Source: an uncultured Acidobacteriota bacterium
GTDB taxonomy: Bacteria; Acidobacteriota; Terriglobia; Acidiferrales; UBA7541
Assembly (NCBI GenBank): GCA_963702795.1
Contig: CAVPDY010000004.1
Coordinates: 358,847 to 422,846 of the forward strand
DNA: 64,000 nucleotides
Direction of reading: 5' to 3'
This document shows, piece by piece, positions 1-11,684 of the stretch. The translations under genes and the position numbers were made by a program. Under the pieces are notes generated by a model. It searched no databases and had not been told where the DNA came from. It saw nothing but the letters and a program-made list of their open reading frames with translations. Within the stretch, counting starts at the first letter, position 1. Each line of letters starts with the position of its first letter.

Positions 1-1974
1 TCATCGGTATATGCCTTCGGCACCCTGGTCGTGGTCGTACTGGCTGGCCTGGGGCTCGGCAGCGGCGTCTACAGCCGTACGCTGCGAACGGCAACCGCCG
101 AGGAACACAGGCGATGGTTTGCCATCCTCGAATTCCTGATTGCGTGCACCTCTGCTGTCTCCTTGATCATTCTGCCGCGGATTCCATTCCTGTTTATTCG
201 CTACTTCCCTTTGTTTCGAGACGCTTTTCGCTGGCAGATTGCCGCGCACTTCGTTGCGGCGGCGATGGTGGCCCTGGCTCCCTCGCTGCTATTCGGCGCG
301 ACGTTTCCGGCGGTCGTCGGCAGCCTCGGTGGCTCTACGGCTCGTTTTGGCCGGACGATTGGCGCCGCGTACGTGGCGAATACGATTGGCACCGTCGCGG
401 GAGCCGGCTTGGCTGGCTTCGTCCTGATCCCAACGATTGGCTTGCGCGCCACCATGACTCTGGGCGTGCTGGCAACGGCCGCCGCCGGCTTCGCCATTTG
501 GTGGCGGATCACACCGGCGAGACTGCTGCGGATCGCCGAACTTACGCCGGCACTCGCCGCTCTCTTCATCATCGCGCTGCTGCCTGCCTGGCCGCGAGAG
601 GTGTTCGCGGCCGGCATCGGTTTCTTCGCGCCTCGCCTCGAGAGCAACGAGACACTCGCCGACGTGGTGAGCAGCATGCGGCTGCTCTACTATCGCGACG
701 GCATCAACACCACCATCTCCGTCGACCAAACCGGCCAAAGCCTCTTCTACCGCTCGAATGGCAAGACCGACGCCTCGACCGACCCGGTCGACATGGCCAA
801 CCAGTTGCTCCTCGGCCACCTCCCGATGCTTCTGCATCCGGCGCCGCGCGATGTCTTCGTGCTCGGCCTCGGCACCGGAGTCACTGCCGCCGCCATCGCG
901 CGCTATCCCGTGCAGCACATCGACATCGTCGAACTGGAACCGGCGGCCGCCAAAGCCGCGCGCCTCTTTGCCCCCTACACCCGCAAGGTGCTCGACGATC
1001 CGCGCGTGCACCTGATCATCGGCGACGGCCGCAATCGGCTCCTCGGAATGCCCAAGAAATACGATGTGATCGTCTCGGATCCCTCCGACATCTGGGTGGC
1101 CGGCACCGGCTCACTCACCACGCTCGAGTACTACCGCATCGTCGCCGCGCGACTCAGGCCCGGCGGCATCTTCGCGCAATGGGTTCACACGCACGCCCTG
1201 CAGCCGGACGATCTCGACCTGTTGGCGGCCACCTTTCACGCGGTGTTTCCGCACATGGAGATTTGGACCTCTGCGCCCGGTAATTTGATTTTCTTGGGCA
1301 CTCGCGACTCCGTTCCTTGGGACTATTCCCGCCTCAAGCAGCGATTCTCGTCGATCACAGGCGTGGCTGATGACCTGAAAGTTGTTGGTGTGCTCGATCC
1401 TTACGCGCTGTTCGGCGCGCAGGTCCTCGGAGAAAACGAAAGCGACCGTTTCGTGCGCGACGTCGCCGGGTTGCACACCGACGATAATCCGGTTCTGGAA
1501 TTTCGCACTCCCCGCGCGCTATATCTCGACACGACGCCAATGATCGCGCAGGAACTCAGCGATTCTCGCAGCCCGGAGGCGCCGGCAATCGTCGGCTTCA
1601 ATCCCGAGCACGATCTCGATGCCCAAGGCGCCTATCTGCTGGGATTTGCGTTTGCGACAGTAGGCCAGTCGAACCCCGCCCTCACCTACATGGAACAGAG
1701 CACGAAGATGGCACCCAACAATCCGCTTTTCCTGGTAGGGCTTGGGAATCAGTACCGCGCGGCGGGTCGCACCGCCGATGCCCGCGCGGCGTACGAACAC
1801 GCGCTCGAGCTCGACATCAACAACGTGGAAGCGTTGCTCTCGCTGGGCGAGATCCGGCTCGACGAAGGCCAGTTGAAATGGACGCGCGTTCTAGCCGAGC
1901 GCGCGTTGCTGCTCGCGCCGCAGGATGCGCGGGCGCACGATCTTCTCGGAAAGCTCGACCAAGCGGAACGCTGA
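1..1974 (+). CDS. Membrane / spermidine-synthase-like (PABS-type SAM-dependent transferase) / TPR fusion protein; 5' end lies outside the window
   Basis: Frame 1 is open from nt 1 (listed ORF 31..1974). Hydrophobic N-terminal helices are followed by the class-I transferase motif VFVLGLGTGVTAAAIA...YDVIVSDPSD, then C-terminal TPR-like repeats (AAYEHALELDINNVEALLSLG). Stop is TGA at 1972-1974. Confidence 0.8.
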   Translation, partial: SSVYAFGTLVVVVLAGLGLGSGVYSRTLRTATAEEHRRWFAILEFLIACTSAVSLIILPRIPFLFIRYFPLFRDAFRWQIAAHFVAAAMVALAPSLLFGATFPAVVGSLGGSTARFGRTIGAAYVANTIGTVAGAGLAGFVLIPTIGLRATMTLGVLATAAAGFAIWWRITPARLLRIAELTPALAALFIIALLPAWPREVFAAGIGFFAPRLESNETLADVVSSMRLLYYRDGINTTISVDQTGQSLFYRSNGKTDASTDPVDMANQLLLGHLPMLLHPAPRDVFVLGLGTGVTAAAIARYPVQHIDIVELEPAAAKAARLFAPYTRKVLDDPRVHLIIGDGRNRLLGMPKKYDVIVSDPSDIWVAGTGSLTTLEYYRIVAARLRPGGIFAQWVHTHALQPDDLDLLAATFHAVFPHMEIWTSAPGNLIFLGTRDSVPWDYSRLKQRFSSITGVADDLKVVGVLDPYALFGAQVLGENESDRFVRDVAGLHTDDNPVLEFRTPRALYLDTTPMIAQELSDSRSPEAPAIVGFNPEHDLDAQGAYLLGFAFATVGQSNPALTYMEQSTKMAPNNPLFLVGLGNQYRAAGRTADARAAYEHALELDINNVEALLSLGEIRLDEGQLKWTRVLAERALLLAPQDARAHDLLGKLDQAER

Positions 1975-2003
1975 GGAGCGTTCCACTCTCTCGCTCAATA
2001 CTG

Positions 2004-2897
2004 CTACCGCGGTGTCGAAGTGGTGGCGCCGAACTTCTGCGGCTCGAATTCCTCCGGGACGTAGAAGGTCTCGATCGTATTTCCGGCAGCGGTGGCCACG
2101 ATCACCTCTTTATGGAGAGGATCGAGAACCATGCCGATGTCATTCGACTGCCGGCCCAGGGGAGCCACAATTTTGACCGGCGGCTCGGTGCTGGTTCCGC
2201 TTTCGGGGATCTTCCAGATCTCGAAGTTGTTTCCATAGTGCGTAATCAACTGCAACGTGGGCGGGTAAATGTCGTATTGATTGCCCATGCGAACCGGGCC
2301 TTTGATGATGGCCTTCGGGGGCGTGTCGCCGCTCGCCGTACGATCAAAGACGAGAATCGAACTGGTTTCCGCACCGACGCCCAAGACGGGCGCCAGAAGC
2401 AGATTGTGGATAGGGTCGACGCGGATGCACGGAGTATTGCCGCCGCCGTAGACGTTGCCGGGCGCTGCCCCCACGCTGTTATCGGTGTTCTGCTTGCCCA
2501 GTGACAGCTGGGTATGCGGGCCGCCGAGAATCCGCTTCGGAGCCACGTTGCCATTGTCCGTTCGATTGAACACTAGAATCGTTTGATCCGGCGTCGCGAT
2601 ATAGATTTCGTTGTGCACCGGGTCGATGCTCACCTTGCCCGTTGCGCCCACACCCTTGATCTGCGTCTTGTCTCCCTGGATCACTCGTAGAGGCGCTTCC
2701 TCTCCGCTGGCTGCGCCGCGGAACGACAAAATCGCTTGCGTCAGCGGGCTGGTCACTACGATCTCGTCGTGGATTCCGTCAAACGCGATGTCGTGCATCG
2801 TGCGGCCCAACAGTGATCCCTGACCTTCAATGGCCCTCAGTGGCGGGCTGTCTTCTTTCGCCGACCTGGCGAAAACCGCGATCTGCGGTTGGTTCAC
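2004..2897 (-). CDS. Beta-propeller repeat protein, distal part (no signal peptide); same frame as 2898..4295 and contiguous with it
   Basis: Listed ORF of 297 aa starting at GTG directly after the TGA of the upstream ORF. Carries the same repeat unit (SPPLRAIEGQG, EAPLRVIQGDKTQIKG, VAPKRILGGPHTQLSL, TPPKAIIKGPVRMG). No Shine-Dalgarno sequence within 5-10 nt of the GTG. Confidence 0.7.
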   Translation of the reverse strand: MNQPQIAVFARSAKEDSPPLRAIEGQGSLLGRTMHDIAFDGIHDEIVVTSPLTQAILSFRGAASGEEAPLRVIQGDKTQIKGVGATGKVSIDPVHNEIYIATPDQTILVFNRTDNGNVAPKRILGGPHTQLSLGKQNTDNSVGAAPGNVYGGGNTPCIRVDPIHNLLLAPVLGVGAETSSILVFDRTASGDTPPKAIIKGPVRMGNQYDIYPPTLQLITHYGNNFEIWKIPESGTSTEPPVKIVAPLGRQSNDIGMVLDPLHKEVIVATAAGNTIETFYVPEEFEPQKFGATTSTPR

Positions 2898-2900
2898 TCA
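2856..2900 (-). other. In-frame TGA (2898-2900) followed by two adjacent hairpins; candidate recoding or readthrough site
   Basis: Minus-strand sequence is TGA GTG AAC CAA CCG CAG ATC GCG GTT TTC GCC AGG TCG GCG AAA. Hairpin 1 is AACCGC-AGATC-GCGGTT (+11..+27 from the U of UGA). Hairpin 2 is TTTCGCC-AGGTC-GGCGAAA (+27..+45). Confidence 0.5.
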
Positions 2901-4295
2901 ATTCGGTACCAGGATTTCCTGGCGGATGGGATCGTACGTCACCGCCGCGGTCCTCCCGAAGTTCACTCCTACCTTGCTCTCTTCCGCGCTGCGAATCACA
3001 CGCAACGGCGACGCGTCGCCATCGGCCATGATCGGATACACCGTGGCCGAGGAGTTGCCGAGGTTGGAAACCCAAACCTCTTTGTTCTTGAGGTCGAGCG
3101 CCACGCCCGTCGGATTGCGCAGGCGCGTCGAAGGCCCGTGAATCACTCGGGCTGGCGCGACGTTGCCGTTCGCCTTCGGAGCGTTGGCGAAGACCAGCAC
3201 GGACTGGCCAATGTCGTTGGCAACGTACAGGTCGCCATTGTCCGGGTTGTACTTCATGCCGCCGGGCCAATCGAGCTGGGTCTTATCGCCGCTGATGGTG
3301 CGCAGCGGCTTGGCGTCGCCGTTGGCATCCAGCGCATAGACTTGAATCCCGGGCGGCAGGAATTTGCCGGTGCCGGCGGTGGTGAAATCACTGTGGTGGC
3401 CCCAGGTATTGACGAACAACAGGTGGTCCTTTTCATCCACGGTGATGCCATGGGGCGCGTCCAGCATGGTGTCGTTCCCGAGGATTCGGCGCACCGGACG
3501 GTCTTCGCCTTTGGCGTGCTTGGGGTAGACCACCACCTGCGGCGGAAATTCGACGGTCAGGAACAACTCCTGCGTCTGCTCATCGGCCGCGATGTTGTAC
3601 ACCCGGTGCGGCGTGTGCAGGATCGAGATCGGACTCTCGTCCCCTTGCGCTTCCCGCGCGAAACGCTCCATCTTGTCGCCCGTGTCCGATTCCACCGAGT
3701 AGATGTCCCCACTCACCGGGTCCACGTAGAGACCGTTATTGAATTGCAGCGCTGTGTGATCTCCCGTGACGATGCGCTTCGGCGGCGTGATGTCCGTATC
3801 GTTCTTGGGCGTCGGAGACAAGCGGTCAAAGACCCGGTAGGACCACAGGTTGTTGTCCGTCATGATCACTTCGTTGGAATTCACATCGACGGCGATCGAA
3901 CTGTAGGTTGGAGCCGTATCGCGAATCGTGCGCACTGGCAAGCGCGCGCCCTTGGCCCTCAGCTCCGCCGTCTCTTTGAGCTGCTGCTCTGTGTGGGGAA
4001 AAGAAAAATATTCGTTGGCTTGATCGCCTGGCACCCCGCCCGCTCCGCGCTGGCCGGCGGCTTGCCGTGGTTCGGTTTCCAGCTTGGCGAGCAGAGCCTG
4101 CTCCTGCGGGGAGTCCGCCGTATTCGGATTGGCGCTCGCGGATTCGTCCCACGAGCAAGCGTCGGTATTCTGGGGAAGCTGCCGGACCGACACCAAACGA
4201 GATGTGCCCTCGGGAGCGGCGCCCGCAAAGACGCCGATCGCGATCAAGGACACCGCGAGAACCATCCATTCAAATTTTCTGGGTTTCACGCGCAT
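2898..4295 (-). CDS. Secreted beta-propeller repeat protein, proximal part (signal peptide, low-complexity linker, about 6.5 blades)
   Basis: Listed ORF of 465 aa. N-terminal hydrophobic segment is MRVKPRKFEWMVLAVSLIAIGVFAGA. Repeated motif ..P.R.I.G..T.L..P.G...D occurs as AKPLRTISGDKTQLDWPGG, VAPARVIHGPSTRLRNPTG and ASPLRVIRSAEE. The ORF ends ...EILVPN-TGA in the middle of a repeat unit. Confidence 0.8.
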   Translation of the reverse strand: MRVKPRKFEWMVLAVSLIAIGVFAGAAPEGTSRLVSVRQLPQNTDACSWDESASANPNTADSPQEQALLAKLETEPRQAAGQRGAGGVPGDQANEYFSFPHTEQQLKETAELRAKGARLPVRTIRDTAPTYSSIAVDVNSNEVIMTDNNLWSYRVFDRLSPTPKNDTDITPPKRIVTGDHTALQFNNGLYVDPVSGDIYSVESDTGDKMERFAREAQGDESPISILHTPHRVYNIAADEQTQELFLTVEFPPQVVVYPKHAKGEDRPVRRILGNDTMLDAPHGITVDEKDHLLFVNTWGHHSDFTTAGTGKFLPPGIQVYALDANGDAKPLRTISGDKTQLDWPGGMKYNPDNGDLYVANDIGQSVLVFANAPKANGNVAPARVIHGPSTRLRNPTGVALDLKNKEVWVSNLGNSSATVYPIMADGDASPLRVIRSAEESKVGVNFGRTAAVTYDPIRQEILVPN

Positions 4296-4567
4296 TGGAC
4301 TCCTTGAGGCTGCCTCGCACGCACGGGAATTCGATTGATTAACTTTACGCTCGCGCCTCGGAGGAGGTCAAGCCGCGCCAGACTTATTCCAGTTCGGGTG
4401 CGCAAGGTTCGAGCACCCGCCCGGCGCTGGAATCGAGCTGCAGGTCAGGGGCACCAGTCCGTGTTTTGTGGGGAAACAGAGTGCGGGTTTACAGATCGGC
4501 GAAGACATCTGGCTCGCGTAAAGGCAGTTGGAACGAATGTATTTGTCCCGCGCAATGTCGCAGAGAT

Positions 4568-5530
4568 TTACTTGCCGGGCTTATCGAGGTTGCCTCCGCC
4601 AGCATCCGCGGCATTTTTATACAGCTCGTTATAGAGCGCTTGCTGCGAGACGGAGCAAATCATCTCGCGAATATCGAAGCTCGGCGAATTCATCCCCAAG
4701 CGGAAATTTTTCAGCGGATACCAAGGTTGCGTATACATCGTCGGGTCAGTGATCTTCAGGGTCAGATCAATGTTGAATTCGTCCACACGGTGAAAGGTTT
4801 CCTCCACGACCAAGTCGCTGCTATGCGGCCGGCCGACATTATCAATCCAGGTGCTGTCGTCCAGCCCGGTGGTTGTCACGACCAGCGTGGTATCGTCCAC
4901 CCACTTACCCACCGAGTATCCGAACCACCGCGGCTCAGTAATCACCTTGGGCAGATCCCGTCCGTCCGTCCAGATGGTGCGGAATGTCCTGGTGTTTTGA
5001 TAGAGCATCAAGACCTGATCCTTGGTTTGAACGATTTGCACCGCCCTCAGGTTGAAAAGTTCGATGCGCGGAAATCCAATCGGATCGCAGGTGTCGAAGG
5101 GATCGTTAATCTCCGTAATGGGAGCTATGTTGGTGCCAAATCCCGTTTTGTGGGACAGCATGGTCTGTTTGCCCAAAGGGGTGTACGGCATGATGGCCTC
5201 ATGCTGCGGATCGCTGGGCATGTCCCTTGGGCCGGTGAACATGACTCCGTCCCGATATGCGGGGACTGGCTCCCAAATCCCGGATAGGTCATGGAGCGGA
5301 GCAGGGCCGGGCTTCTTGCCCGTCGCTTCGATAGGCCCTTGCGGACGGTCCCAACCGTCGAGGTGTATGTTCTGGTTTTCTCCACCCGCAGCAGGCGCCG
5401 GCTGTTGGGACGTCCCCTGACCATCTCCGCCCCCTGCCCTCTGCGCGGGCGGAGCGGTTTGAGCTCGTGCTACAGAGAAGAGCGTCAGCGCCGCAAGTGC
5501 TGTTGCCAAGCCGACAAAATGCCTTAGCAT
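4568..5530 (-). CDS. Secreted protein of unknown function (paralog of 22829..23696)
   Basis: Listed ORF of 320 aa. Signal peptide is MLRHFVGLATALAALTLFSVARAQ. Shares DLSG.W, C(D/E)P.G.PRI, TDGR..P, W.G.SVG.W.GDTLV..T and D..L.I.I.DP...T.PW blocks with the ORFs at 22829/23283. Confidence 0.7.
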   Translation of the reverse strand: MLRHFVGLATALAALTLFSVARAQTAPPAQRAGGGDGQGTSQQPAPAAGGENQNIHLDGWDRPQGPIEATGKKPGPAPLHDLSGIWEPVPAYRDGVMFTGPRDMPSDPQHEAIMPYTPLGKQTMLSHKTGFGTNIAPITEINDPFDTCDPIGFPRIELFNLRAVQIVQTKDQVLMLYQNTRTFRTIWTDGRDLPKVITEPRWFGYSVGKWVDDTTLVVTTTGLDDSTWIDNVGRPHSSDLVVEETFHRVDEFNIDLTLKITDPTMYTQPWYPLKNFRLGMNSPSFDIREMICSVSQQALYNELYKNAADAGGGNLDKPGK

Positions 5531-5583: not shown

Positions 5584-5967
5584 CTATTTCACGTTCGAAT
5601 GCATTACGTAGCCATTGGCGAGGATAATTCTGTCGATACGTCCGATGGGCGCGCCATTTCCGGCCACGGCTGCCAGGATTACCGTAACCACATCCCCAGC
5701 TTTGAAGGTCTTGGCGTTGTAGCCAAAATTGACGAGAGTAGACGGAGCCTGGTTTTCGCAGACCCAATGCACAACGTCGCCCTTGTCATCGGTAACGTCG
5801 ACCAGCAGAAAAGTATGCGGATTGGCCCAGATCCATTTTGTCACCGTTCCCTTGACGGTGACCTCCTTGTTCACGTACGACGCGTTTCCGTGATGCGCGG
5901 ACAGTGAAACCGAAACCGCTAAGAGGCCTGCCAACATCAGCAAAGTTATCTTAAGGTTGGTTCTCAT
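5584..5967 (-). CDS. Small secreted DUF6152-like protein (signal peptide then HH motif)
   Basis: ATG at 5967 (MRTNLKITLLMLAGLLAVSVSLSA-HHGNASY) is preceded by GGAGGG. It is preferred over the listed start at 6024. The ...VTVKGTVTKWIWANPH... block matches its paralog at 22391..22801. Confidence 0.7.
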   Translation of the reverse strand: MRTNLKITLLMLAGLLAVSVSLSAHHGNASYVNKEVTVKGTVTKWIWANPHTFLLVDVTDDKGDVVHWVCENQAPSTLVNFGYNAKTFKAGDVVTVILAAVAGNGAPIGRIDRIILANGYVMHSNVK

Positions 5968-6364
5968 CTTGGCCCTCCGGGGTTTCTCTCCGGGACGCCG
6001 GGCTTTCGCTGGGTCCCAATGCACGGAAGTTTAGATCAGGAAACAGGACAAGGTCGAGCACTAAATCGCAGAATTGCCGGCGCAAAATATGGGAGCAAGT
6101 ATGGCGATAGCAAGCAGCCCATCCATGGTTTCCCTCCCGATTGTCAGCGTCCACTGCCAGTTCCGGCTGCCGGGGACGGCATGCCAGGCCGAAAATCGGT
6201 CGTGAGGCCACATTCCTATAATCACCGTCTCTCGGGACTTGGCTATGAGAACTTCCTCGTTTAGACCTGCTCCGGCGGCAAGTTCGTTGTGCCCATGGCC
6301 GGAGAAGGGTATGATGCGCGAATCTGAGGCGCGAGTCGGAAATCCCCGGTAAGGAGCGGCACGA

Positions 6365-7471
6365 ATGAAGAACTATTTTGTGGATGTGCTTTCTCTCACC
6401 TTGCTGCTCACTATTGCAACTCCAAAGGTGGCCCGCGCGCAAGGGTCCATGGCCGCGGCGCAACCGCACCTTGACAAAGCCAAGGCAGCCGCGTGGAATC
6501 CGAAAGAACCTCTCAACGACCTTACGCATTTGTACGAAGTTGTTTGCGGACCGGCAATGAGTGAGAAGGGTCCCCGGGCCGACGCGGAGCCTGGGCCACC
6601 GGAACTGCATAAGACTCCACCGCGGAACGAGTGGTACCAGGAACCGGCCAAAGTGTTCGATAACCTGTATTGGCTGGGCAGCTGGGGCAGCGCTTCCCGT
6701 GTTCCTCCAGGCCCGGGAGGACAGTCTACTTGGGCCGTCACGACGTCCGATGGAATCATCCTGATCGACAGCGGCTATGACTATAGCGCCCCCGTCTTGA
6801 TCACGGGCGGACTGAAGAAGATGGGGCTCGATCCGACCCAGATCAAGTATGTCATCCTCAGCCACGCGCACAGCGATCGTTATTGGGGATCGAAATATCT
6901 CCAAGACACCTACCATGCGCACCTCATCATGTCCGAAACGGATTGGAATGGAATCAAGATCAGTCCCGACCCTGAGGACGTGAAGCCGAAGAAGGATATG
7001 ATCGCGACCGATGGGATGAAGGTGACCTTGGGCGACACTACGCTAACCATCTACCTCACTCCGGGACATACGCCAGGCACGATCTCCACTCTCGTTCCGC
7101 TGAAGGATGGAAATCAGCGTCATCTTGGCGCGGTATGGGGAGGCATCAATGCCGGTCTCTACGGCCACGGGGTCCGCAATGGCCCGAATCTGCAAGCAGT
7201 CGACCAGATGTGGATTACATCCGCCACTCGATTCAAGGAGATTGCGGATAAGGCAGGGGTCGACACCTATCTTGCCATCCACCCTTTCTATGACAATGCA
7301 CTGGAAAAGATCCACCTGCTGCAATACCGGAAACCAGGGGAACCCAATATCATGGTGAGCAAAGACAATTTCGATCGCTTTATGACCATCATCAAGGAAT
7401 GCACCGAGGCAGAATTGGCCCGGCTAGGACCGGCGCCTGCGCAGGAGACAAAAGGACAGTCAGGACAGTAA
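6365..7471 (+). CDS. Secreted metallo-beta-lactamase-fold hydrolase
   Basis: Listed ORF of 368 aa. Has an N-terminal signal peptide, the MBL motif YVILSHAHSDRYWG, and a downstream LTPGHTPG block. Confidence 0.8.
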   Translation: MKNYFVDVLSLTLLLTIATPKVARAQGSMAAAQPHLDKAKAAAWNPKEPLNDLTHLYEVVCGPAMSEKGPRADAEPGPPELHKTPPRNEWYQEPAKVFDNLYWLGSWGSASRVPPGPGGQSTWAVTTSDGIILIDSGYDYSAPVLITGGLKKMGLDPTQIKYVILSHAHSDRYWGSKYLQDTYHAHLIMSETDWNGIKISPDPEDVKPKKDMIATDGMKVTLGDTTLTIYLTPGHTPGTISTLVPLKDGNQRHLGAVWGGINAGLYGHGVRNGPNLQAVDQMWITSATRFKEIADKAGVDTYLAIHPFYDNALEKIHLLQYRKPGEPNIMVSKDNFDRFMTIIKECTEAELARLGPAPAQETKGQSGQ

Positions 7472-9385: not shown

Positions 9386-10277
9386 TTACTGCACCAGAGT
9401 GCTTACGGTGGTCGAGTTGTCGAATGCCTCCGGGACGTAGAAGGTTTCGACGGTGTTTCCGGCGGCCGTGGCTACGATCACCTCTTTGTGCAGGGGATCG
9501 AGAACCAAGCCGATGTCACCGGATTGCCGGCCCAAGGGAGCTGAAATCTTCATGGGCGGATCGGTGCTGGTGCCGCTCTCGGGAATCTTCCAAATCTCGA
9601 AGTTGTTTCCGGTGTGCGAAATCAGTTTCAGACGTGGGCGGGTAGATATCGAACTGATTACCCATGCGTACCGGGCCTTTGATCACGGCCTTCGGCGGAG
9701 TATTGCCGCTCGCCGTGCGATCAAAGATCAGGACACTCCCTCCGTTTCCAAATTGGCGGCCCACGGAAGGCACCAAAAGGAGGTTGTGCACCGGGTCGAT
9801 GCGGATGCAGGGAACGTTGCCGCCGCCGTAGACGTTTCCGCCTCCGGCGACCACGGTGTTATCGGTGTTCTGTTTACCCAGCGATAGTTGGGTGTCCGGC
9901 CCGCCCAGAACTCGCTTGGGCGCTACGTTGCCGTTGTCTGTGCGATTAAAGACCAGGATAGTCTGGTCCGGCGTGGCCAGATAAATCTCGTTGTGCACCG
10001 GGTCGATGCTCACTTTGCCCGTTGCTCCCACGCCCTTGATTTGCGTCTTGTCTCCCTGGATCACTCGAAGAGGCGCTTCCTCTCCGCTGGCTGCGCCGCG
10101 GAACGACAAAATCGCTTGCGTCAGCGGGCTGGTCACCACGATCTCGTCGTGGATTCCGTCAAACGCGATGTCGTGCATCGTGCGGCCCAACAGTGATCCC
10201 TGACCTTCGATAGCTCTCAGTGGCGGGCTGTCTTCTTTCGCCGACCTGGCGAAAACCGCGATCTGCGGTTGGTTCAC
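9386..10277 (-). pseudogene. Beta-propeller distal part, copy 2, disrupted by a 1-nt insertion near 9631
   Basis: The listed ORF 9516..10277 matches copy 1 up to DIYPPT and then diverges (SETDFAHRK...). Shifting one frame restores LKLISHTGNNFEIWKIPESGTSTDPPMKISAPLGRQSGDIGLVLDPLHKEVIVATAAGNTVETFYVPEAF..., ending at TAA 9386-9388. Copy 2 reads tttcaGacgtggg where copy 1 reads ctgcaacgtggg. Confidence 0.75.
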
Positions 10278-10280
10278 TCA
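10236..10280 (-). other. Second copy of the in-frame TGA plus double-hairpin junction
   Basis: Sequence 10216..10316 is identical to 2836..2936 at an offset of 7380. The TGA is at 10278-10280 and the GTG at 10275-10277. Confidence 0.5.
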
Positions 10281-11684
10281 ATTCGGTACCAGGATTTCCT
10301 GGCGGATGGGATCGTAGGTCACCGCCGCGGTCCTCCCGAAGTTCACTCCTACCTTGCTCTCTTCCGCGCTGCGAATGACTCGGAGCGGCGAGGCGTCGCC
10401 ATCGGCCATGATCGGATACACCGTGGCCGAGGAGTTGCCGAGATTCGAAACCCAGACTTCCCGATTCTTGAGGTCCAGCGCCACGCCCGTTGGATTGCGC
10501 AGGCGCGTGGACGGCCCGTGGATCACGCGGGCTGGCGCTACGTTGCCGTTCAGCTTCGGAGCGTTGGCGAAGACCAGGACAGACTGGCCGATGTCATTGG
10601 CGATGTATAGGTCGCCGTTTTCAGGATTGAACTTCATGCCGCCGGGCCAATCGAGCTGCGTTTTGTCGCCAGCGATCACGCGCAGGGGCTTGGCGTCGCC
10701 ATTGGCGTCCAGCGCATAGACTTGAATCGCCGGCGGCAGGAATTTGCCGGTGCCCGCGACGGTGAAATCGCTGTGGTGGCCCCAGGTATTGACGAACAGC
10801 AGGTGATCTTTCTCGTCCACGGCGATGCCGTGCGGGGCGTCCAGGCCTGTGTCGTTGCCCAGAATCCGGCGCACGGGCTTATCTTCACCCTTGGCGTGCT
10901 TGGGGTAGACCACCACCTGCGGCGGAAATTCGACGGTCAGGAACAACTCCTGCGTCTGCTCATCGGCCGCGATGTTGTACACCCGGTGCGGCGTGTGCAG
11001 GATCGAGATCGGACTCTCGTCCCCTTGCGCTTCCCGCGCGAAACGCTCCATCTTGTCGCCCGTGTCCGATTCCACCGAGTAGATGTCCCCACTCACCGGG
11101 TCCACGTAGAGACCGTTATTGAATTGCAGCGCTGTGTGATCTCCCGTGACGATGCGCTTCGGCGGCGTGATGTCCGTATCGTTCTTGGGCGTCGGAGACA
11201 AGCGGTCAAAGACGCGGTAGGACCACAGATTGTTGTCCGTCATGATCACTTCGTTGGAATTCACATCGACGGCGATCGAACTGTAGGTTGGAGCCGTATC
11301 GCGGATTGTGCGCACTGGCAAGCGCGCTCCCTTGGCTCGGAGATCCGCAGTCACGCGCAACTGCTCCGCCGTATTCGGCATTTGAAAGTAGCCGCCACCC
11401 TCAGCTTGGCCGCCCTGGCGGCCAGCAGGCCTTTGGCCTTGGGCATCAGGAGCAGGCGCCTGCTGCAACTCCGCAAGTAACGTCTCTTCCTGCGGAGAGG
11501 TAGCGGCACTATCATCGGCGGCGCTCGGCTGATCAAAATTCGCGCAGGCGTCCATATTTGCAGGAAGCTGCTGCACGGAAACCAATCGAGATGTACCCTC
11601 GGGGGAAGCACCCGCAAATACGCCGATGGCGATCACGGCTACCGCGAGGATGACCCATTCAAATTTCTTTCGCTTTACGCGCAT
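10278..11684 (-). CDS. Secreted beta-propeller repeat protein, proximal part, copy 2
   Basis: Listed ORF of 468 aa. Near-identical to 2898..4295 over the propeller region and diverged in the N-terminal low-complexity linker. Confidence 0.8.
   Translation of the reverse strand: MRVKRKKFEWVILAVAVIAIGVFAGASPEGTSRLVSVQQLPANMDACANFDQPSAADDSAATSPQEETLLAELQQAPAPDAQGQRPAGRQGGQAEGGGYFQMPNTAEQLRVTADLRAKGARLPVRTIRDTAPTYSSIAVDVNSNEVIMTDNNLWSYRVFDRLSPTPKNDTDITPPKRIVTGDHTALQFNNGLYVDPVSGDIYSVESDTGDKMERFAREAQGDESPISILHTPHRVYNIAADEQTQELFLTVEFPPQVVVYPKHAKGEDKPVRRILGNDTGLDAPHGIAVDEKDHLLFVNTWGHHSDFTVAGTGKFLPPAIQVYALDANGDAKPLRVIAGDKTQLDWPGGMKFNPENGDLYIANDIGQSVLVFANAPKLNGNVAPARVIHGPSTRLRNPTGVALDLKNREVWVSNLGNSSATVYPIMADGDASPLRVIRSAEESKVGVNFGRTAAVTYDPIRQEILVPN

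Follow-up and report, generated by a model that had tools for sequence, protein, structure and literature searches.

A conserved in-frame UGA, probably read as selenocysteine, in a beta-propeller protein family of Acidobacteriota

The bacterial selenoproteins catalogued so far are mostly oxidoreductases of the thioredoxin-fold or metal-cofactor type. Here we describe a different kind of candidate, a gene at 2004..4295 on the minus strand of a 64,000-nt stretch ("the window") of contig CAVPDY010000004.1 (positions 358,847 to 422,846) from an uncultured Acidobacteriota bacterium, in which an in-frame TGA at 2898..2900 interrupts a sequence that otherwise reads as one beta-propeller protein. An original prediction, made from the sequence, had proposed this codon as a candidate selenocysteine (Sec) or readthrough site. 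We conclude, with a probability of about 0.92, that the TGA is read as Sec and that 2004..4295 is a single selenoprotein gene. This conclusion is supported by the conservation of the TGA, by homologues with Cys at the same site, by a covarying selenocysteine insertion sequence (SECIS) hairpin and by purifying selection downstream of the TGA.

Sec users are known among the Acidobacteria, with three families and four selenoproteins (PMC1794560); Occallatibacter riparius is one of them (PMC12013277), and [NiFeSe] hydrogenase variants occur in the phylum as well (PMC13582414). The general form of bacterial SECIS elements is captured by the bSECISearch model, which specifies a loop of 3-9 nt, a stem of 4-16 bp, a G in the first two loop positions followed by G or U, a spacing of 16-37 nt from the UGA and a minimum free energy of at most -7.5 kcal/mol (PMC13188914).

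The closest described system at the level of decoding is Escherichia coli fdhF. Both genes have an in-frame UGA and a coding-region hairpin with a small apical loop beginning (A)GGUC. The loop of fdhF had been given as GGUC in the original prediction, and reading the E. coli genome sequence confirmed it: GCA-GGUC-UGC (CAGGUCUG) in fdhF corresponds to GCC-AGGUC-GGC (CCAGGUCGG) in the window gene. The distance from UGA to loop is 30 nt in the window gene versus 18 nt in fdhF. The window gene is also unlike fdhF in that a conserved mini-hairpin of 4-6 bp fills the spacer and the predicted stem has no bulged U. The two proteins are unrelated, and the Sec of the window gene does not serve as a Mo ligand within a UHxP motif. 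The decoding logic, with SelB and tRNA-Sec, is presumably the same. In the mechanism that we propose, the ribosome would reach the UGA at codon 466, and the hairpin 30 nt downstream (stem UUCGCC/GGCGAA, loop AGGUC) would act as a bacterial SECIS and bind SelB-GTP-Sec-tRNA(Sec), SelB and tRNA(Sec) being the decoding agents that we infer. Sec would then be inserted instead of termination, and translation would run for 297 more codons. The predicted product is an exported tandem beta-propeller of ~763 aa and ~12 blades, with Sec in place of the canonical blade Asp.

The in-frame TGA and the aligned codon in relatives

The gene comprises 763 codons, from ATG 4295, with AAGGAG 4 nt upstream, to the stop TAG 2006..2004. 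Its first open reading frame (ORF), 4295..2901 (-), encodes 465 aa with the C-terminal sequence ...EILVPN (YDPIRQEILVPN) and runs into TGA 2900..2898, which occupies residue 466. The next in-frame codon, GTG 2897..2895, is the start of the second ORF, 2004..2897, which encodes 297 aa and ends at the same TAG; no purine-rich Shine-Dalgarno sequence precedes this GTG. The two ORFs, their junction and the lack of a Shine-Dalgarno sequence at the GTG had been described in the original prediction and were found in the sequence as described. Public annotation splits the gene: the NCBI/ENA entry identical to the first ORF of the window is 465 aa long. The basic and hydrophobic N-terminal segment MRVKPRKFEWMVLAVSLIAIGVFAGAA (4215..4295, -), conserved in homologues, is likely to be a signal peptide or a membrane anchor, judging from its translation. 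The window has a G+C content of 60%, and TGA stops 16 of 47 selected long ORFs, or ~14 without the family's own TGAs. Because TGA terminates these ~14 other ORFs, the genetic code is standard, in agreement with the earlier view that TGA is not reassigned, and reassignment was rejected as an explanation. When the window was scanned for further in-frame TGA candidates, only the two copies of the selenoprotein gene were recovered (the second copy is described below), and the other matches lie antisense to real genes.

Scanning a single genome from each species yielded 62 related loci, of which 60 are labelled as Acidobacteriota or Terriglobia metagenome-assembled genomes (MAGs). In these loci, the codon aligned with the junction is TGA at 70 sites, which represent 62 distinct sequences of 66 nt, and TGT or TGC at 3 sites. 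In addition, the fused protein was searched against 5.8 billion protein clusters, and the best 120 clusters were examined. Among these, 89 have 436-498 aa and end in ...PN, nearly all in ...EILVPN, and 29 are full-length, with 694-816 aa; all 29 full-length homologues read LVPN-C-VNHPQIA across the junction. They align end to end with the window protein, which supports the earlier proposal that the two ORFs form one ~763-aa protein across the TGA. In the alignment with the full-length homologues, L462, P464, N465, C466, V467, P470, Q471 and I472 are invariant. Metagenomic contigs contributed another 43 Cys sites (on 37 contigs), which were picked with a Cys-specific pattern. Thus, the comparison of the aligned codon that had been suggested as a check gave TGA or a Cys codon, and no other sense codon was seen among the genomic, database and metagenomic sites examined. 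An exhaustive hidden Markov model search of 1.84 billion representatives at 50% identity retrieved 1626 proteins at E <= 1e-30, a number that overstates the family size because it includes repeat-level matches to other propeller proteins. Of the 150 best of these 1626 representatives, 22 terminate precisely at the site and 11 carry Cys there, with no other residue seen at this position; at least 4 correspond to the downstream half annotated as a separate protein when judged by sequence (5-6 when judged by profile position).

The TGA is retained even in paralogues that are 40-55% identical to the window protein, with motifs after the site that include VAHPQ, VNTPV and VAYPS, and the ORF downstream of the TGA has 264-317 aa at most of the 70 sites. 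A single locus often contains several TGA copies: L026 has four, and L021 and L040 have three each. MAGs contain 3-5 copies, for example, four in MFD04492.bin.1.120, five in CBDCFM01 and five in Sulfopaludibacter SbA3 (TH-08apr19-233), and the complete Terriglobia chromosome OZ240237.1 (3.76 Mb) contains three. The only non-Acidobacteriota labels among the 62 loci belong to two short contigs, L025 (labelled Verrucomicrobiae) and L047 (labelled Nitrospira). Over the 72 nt compared around the TGA, L025 does not differ from the Terriglobia loci L022 and L023, whose protein motif it shares; the motif of L047 is that of the Acidobacteria loci L045, L046 and L054, from each of which it differs at 2-5 synonymous positions. 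These two labels may be the result of mis-binning.

The window itself contains a second copy of the gene that was absent from the original prediction. Located ~7 kb from the first copy and 87% identical to it, this copy, at 9419..11684 (-), has its TGA at 10278..10280 and, at 10235..10255, the same SECIS, as found by tblastn, ORF analysis and nucleotide alignment. Comparison of the two copies over the first 130 codons after the TGA revealed 29 synonymous and 3 non-synonymous codon changes, and 31 of the 34 base differences downstream of the TGA are at third positions. This pattern of substitutions clearly points to purifying selection in the region downstream of the TGA and to its translation in frame.

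These observations bear directly on two alternatives. The first one is a plain nonsense mutation, a pseudogene or a sequencing error; the original prediction had named a nonsense mutation as the competing explanation. Frameshifts that would fit such decay or error do exist, namely, a 1-nt frameshift in the second window copy and frameshifts in the MAG loci L052, L053 and L057. However, 70 sites share this TGA, across dozens of genomes and also in distant paralogues, the frame remains open and under purifying selection afterwards, and the RNA-level constraints described below are specific to the TGA forms. The nonsense explanation is contradicted by these data, and we consider it extremely improbable. 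As a separate observation, frameshifts or early stops inside family members, giving short upstream or downstream ORFs, were seen in the long-read MAG loci L052, L053, L057, L017 and L051; these look like assembly error rather than biology.

The second alternative is that there are two genes, with termination at the TGA and synthesis of the downstream half by re-initiation at the adjoining GTG (UGAGUG coupling). In the window and in 54 of the 62 distinct Sec forms, the codon immediately after the TGA is GTG, and gene callers do annotate two ORFs. Conversely, in 8 of the 62 distinct Sec forms, the codon after the TGA is GTA or GTC, neither of which is a start codon, and thus the relatives are not consistently two genes with their own starts, a possibility that the original prediction had raised. 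Moreover, the GTG is not preceded by a Shine-Dalgarno sequence, homologues with Cys at the site are single polypeptides, the break is located in a turn inside one blade, and the second half has no export signal though it shares the same fold. Taken together, this evidence makes two separate genes very unlikely, and a single gene with Sec at the TGA remains the reading that we adopt.

Two hairpins downstream of the UGA

Two perfect hairpins follow the UGA at exactly the offsets given in the original prediction. With the U of the UGA counted as +1, these are AACCGC-AGAUC-GCGGUU at +11..+27 (hairpin 1; 2874..2890, -, with a conserved core CCGC/GCGG at 2876..2888) and UUUCGCC-AGGUC-GGCGAAA at +27..+45 (hairpin 2; 2855..2875, -). 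Hairpin 2, with the stem (U)UUCGCC/GGCGAA(A) and the loop AGGUC, is the putative SECIS, as suggested by its pairing, its covariation and its agreement with the bSECISearch model. The 5-nt loop, the stem of 6-8 bp, the G at loop position 2 followed by another G, the 30 nt from UGA to loop and the free energy of -10.0 kcal/mol all fall within the ranges of that model. There is no contradiction with the bSECISearch consensus; the spacing falls towards the upper end of the range, and an extra conserved hairpin is present upstream.

To count base pairs, the 62 distinct Sec-form sequences were stacked without gaps, with 500 shuffles and slid alignments used as controls. Hairpin 2 corresponds to columns 29-36 paired with 42-49, and 94.8% of its cells are paired. 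Compensatory changes were observed at four pairs, as C-G > U-A (6 sequences), G-C > C-G (3 sequences) and C-G > A-U (1 sequence), and the outer pair 30-48 occurs as four pair types. None of the 500 shuffles reached the observed values, and the slid controls did not come close either. Some of the paired changes alter the protein on both sides of the hairpin at once, for example, FARLA > FPRLG, and FDRLS is also present; such joint changes therefore indicate selection on the RNA, beyond the peptide alone. In the loop, Arg is encoded by AGG in 62/62 distinct Sec forms, even though AGG accounts for only 4 of the 39 Arg codons in the window gene.

The Cys forms served as a control for these comparisons: the 43 metagenomic and 3 genomic sites yielded 26 distinct sequences. 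The loop Arg codon in these is AGG in 15/26 and CGG or CGC in 11/26. All 8 pairs of hairpin 2 are kept in 39/62 Sec forms versus 0/26 Cys forms, and 17/26 Cys forms keep 5 pairs or fewer; hairpin 2 has thus decayed in the Cys forms. Some Cys forms (L071, L075, L079 and L095) nevertheless retain a perfect inner hairpin, including the AGG codon, and the Sec-form entry P0125 shares a 90% identity cluster with the Cys form P0001. Because of these intact hairpins and this clustering, the switches from Sec to Cys appear to be recurrent and recent, in some lineages very recent. We infer that the Sec form is ancestral in the family and has repeatedly been converted to Cys.

Hairpin 1 is 93% paired in the 62 Sec forms, with little covariation, and its core CCGC-AGAUY-GCGG has 4/4 pairs in 46/62 Sec forms versus 12/26 Cys forms. 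The distance from the UGA to the start of the loop is 13 nt in the 4-bp form conserved in the family and 10 nt in the 6-bp form found in the window, where a T-to-A change, which converts a His codon to a Gln codon, extends the stem from 4 to 6 bp. We rejected hairpin 1 as the SECIS because its loop, AGAUC, lies below the 16-37 nt range and the hairpin shows little covariation; it is probably a spacer or helper element rather than the loop bound by SelB. If the 12 nt that follow the UGA are excluded, as they would be under a ribosome, the two hairpins constitute the minimum-free-energy structure, at -15.5 kcal/mol.

The presence of a conserved hairpin is also relevant to a third alternative, in which recoding inserts a residue other than Sec at the UGA, either Cys, by means of a selC*-type tRNA(Cys) and a SelB paralogue, or Ser or another residue, by means of allo-tRNAs. 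Acidobacterial allo-tRNAs may be nonsense suppressors, and the selC* tRNA(Cys) may be an opal suppressor (PMC5389517); furthermore, the pairing of TGA forms with Cys homologues would fit the insertion of Cys, too. However, selC* genes were found in Firmicutes, Thermodesulfobacteria, Nitrospirae and Proteobacteria, not in Acidobacteria (PMC5389517), general suppression would affect the ~14 ordinary TGA stops of the window, and non-Sec suppression needs no conserved, covarying hairpin with an fdhF-like GG loop. Insertion of a residue other than Sec is therefore unlikely.

It should be noted that several observations count against the insertion of Sec. First, neither tRNA-Sec nor selA, selB or selD turned up in the 64 kb of the window or in 1.2 Mb of sequence flanking related loci, when all loci were run through ARAGORN and E. 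coli SelA, SelB and SelD served as tblastn queries against the window and flanks; because these regions are a small fraction of the genomes, this result is uninformative rather than negative. Second, an Rfam scan of 1800..4500 with E up to 10 returned no SECIS family and chance matches only (Ysr251, isrK and others). Bacterial SECIS elements are too diverse for a single model (PMC13188914), and for this reason the missing match does not weigh against function. Third, the 66 nt, when free, prefer an alternative fold in which GUGAA, immediately after the UGA, pairs with UUCGC, at -21.5 versus -16.8 kcal/mol, a difference of ~4.7 kcal/mol; the GUGAA would sit inside the ribosome paused at the UGA. 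Fourth, the third residue after the Sec is Gln in both window copies (motif VNQPQ, with CAA at 2889..2891 and 10269..10271), versus His (VNHPQ, with CAT or CAC) in nearly all relatives. Fifth, the second copy has a 1-nt insertion near 9637 compared to the first one, which shifts the frame for the last ~80 codons and represents either an assembly error or a decaying copy. Finally, the motif LVPN-U-VN(H/Q)PQ includes no local CxxU or UxxC, and the only conserved Cys is 419 residues upstream.

Propeller fold, the conserved cysteine and neighbouring genes

The only Pfam match of the protein above its cut-off is the NHL repeat (PF01436; 30.4 bits against a cut-off of 20). The scores for PF08450 (SGL; 20.5 against 26.3) and PF10282 (Lactonase; 20.0 against 21.7) are below their cut-offs, and the NCBIfam 6-phosphogluconolactonase model NF008258 gave 19 bits against 370. 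Some sources give homologues the names 'YncE' and '6-phosphogluconolactonase'. An identity as a 6-phosphogluconolactonase, an SMP-30 protein or a 7-bladed lactonase was rejected, as the scores are below the curated cut-offs.

The structure was modelled with AlphaFold for the Cys homologue P0001, which is 71% identical to the window protein, using an alignment of 35 rows. In this model (predicted local distance difference test score, pLDDT, 81; predicted template modelling score, pTM, 0.81), residues 1-96 are disordered and are followed by twelve four-stranded units, and Cys466 is placed in the turn that joins strands 460-465 and 471-476. The model thus agrees with the earlier description of a ~12-blade propeller with the stop in the turn of one blade. 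In an internal repeat alignment by tblastn, the UGA is opposite the Asp of the blade motif '...DLYVAN-D-IGQSVLVFA'. Together, the alignment and the model suggest that, in a tight turn of blade 7, Sec occupies the position held by Asp in the canonical blade motif. A Foldseek search against the Protein Data Bank (PDB) returned only generic tandem WD40-type propellers, at template modelling scores of ~0.3, and a profile search of PDB sequences returned one marginal NHL match, with no solved structure related by sequence.

The protein is strikingly poor in Cys, and its sole other conserved Cys is Cys47 (codon at 4155..4157, -), which is a candidate partner of Sec466. Cys47 is invariant in 29/29 full-length homologues and is present in 86/89 Sec-form N-terminal ORFs, within the motif RLVSVQQLPxNxDxC, ~20 residues after the hydrophobic N-terminus. 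Exactly one Cys is found in 80/89 of the Sec-form N-terminal halves, and exactly two (Cys47 and the site Cys) are found in 21/29 Cys forms. The original prediction had noted the lack of a CxxU-type redox context; this is correct locally, where the sequence is N-U-V-N-Q, but the invariant Cys47 exists near the N-terminus. An identity as a thioredoxin-fold redox selenoprotein (CxxU or UxxC) was rejected, as there is no Cys two residues from the Sec. Because the protein is Cys-poor and Cys47 is the only other conserved Cys, we propose that Cys47 and Sec466 could act together in an exported enzyme, as a redox (selenylsulfide) pair or as a joint ligand. The residues H230, H282, RTMHD 498-502 and HDE 509-511 are invariant in the homologue alignment, and these His, Asp and Glu residues may complete the active site.

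Two genes for secreted proteins are located upstream of the selenoprotein gene, on the same strand: a gene for a secreted protein of 320 aa at 4568..5530 (-) and a DUF6152 gene at 5584..6024 (-; Pfam DUF6152, 8e-21), which also encodes a secreted protein. Homologues of these two genes were found in ~20 related loci, often directly adjoining family members, and the three genes may represent a functional module. The loci with these genes beside family members are L001, L007, L012, L013, L016, L017, L019, L026, L036, L052, L053, L087 and L103; the orientation relative to the family members is co-directional (the window and L103) or divergent (L001 and others). A gene for a metallo-beta-lactamase-fold protein, at 6365..7471 (+) in the window, is likewise found repeatedly at a distance of no more than a few kb from family members, in L022, L047, L054 and L103, and SCO1/SenC and cupredoxin genes are found nearby in L103. 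Between the convergent ends of the selenoprotein gene and of a spermidine-synthase/TPR gene (31..1974, +), there is a perfect 8-bp inverted repeat at 1965..1984 (GGAACGCT-CCTC-AGCGTTCC), which overlaps the TGA stop of the spermidine-synthase/TPR gene and is not followed by a T-run.

Comparison with catalogued selenoproteins and propeller families

The proposed mechanism is the standard bacterial one, and this large family is without description as a selenoprotein in the sources searched. It is absent from the 119 prokaryotic selenoprotein families and subfamilies tabulated in a 2026 review, as well as from the main texts of deep-Sep and BSepDB and from the deep-Sep supplements, and NCBIfam has no model for it. 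In the literature searched, subscription journals being outside its scope, no bacterial selenoprotein was linked with NHL, propeller, lactonase or YncE. We lean slightly towards the view that this is an uncatalogued, probably ancestrally Sec-containing family, present in 3-5 copies per genome in soil Terriglobia, and that Sec in place of a blade Asp, paired with a single N-terminal Cys in an exported ~12-blade propeller, forms a new extracytoplasmic selenoenzyme site.

If this is true, abundant soil Terriglobia are far richer in selenoproteins than annotation shows, with every copy split into two ORFs. Because every member is seen split or shortened, the family size, domain architecture and function predictions in databases would be incorrect across hundreds of entries. 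Selenoenzymes would extend to a further structural type, an exported beta-propeller whose Sec lies in a blade turn, and the use of selenium by Acidobacteriota, a dominant soil phylum, would be tied to a multi-copy gene family, with a bearing on soil selenium cycling and on why Acidobacteriota keep the costly Sec machinery. The numerous natural Sec/Cys pairs, including pairs within 90% identity and pairs whose Cys form has an intact SECIS, would represent a system in which the conversion of Sec to Cys and the decay of the SECIS can be studied.

With respect to fold, the protein resembles the NHL-repeat, YncE-like and lactonase-type propellers (PF01436, PF08450, PF10282), with which it shares the blade motif '...G.lyVaN/D....ilvF'; it differs in having ~12 blades in one chain, compared to 6-7 in these families. 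The use of Sec is not known in NHL, YncE-like or lactonase-type propeller families, and the 2026 catalogue includes none either. The closest parallels in that catalogue are predicted non-thioredoxin, extracytoplasmic selenoproteins, for example, the FCYXU-type TonB-dependent receptor, UshA-like proteins and the MtrB/PioB-like barrel, which are also exported and beta-rich. Like the window family, these proteins have a single Sec and Cys-containing homologues and are known from sequence alone. Conversely, the window family is unlike them in its fold, in its motif PN-U-VNHPQ, in its expansion into paralogues (3-5 copies per MAG) and in its restriction to Acidobacteriota within our sample.

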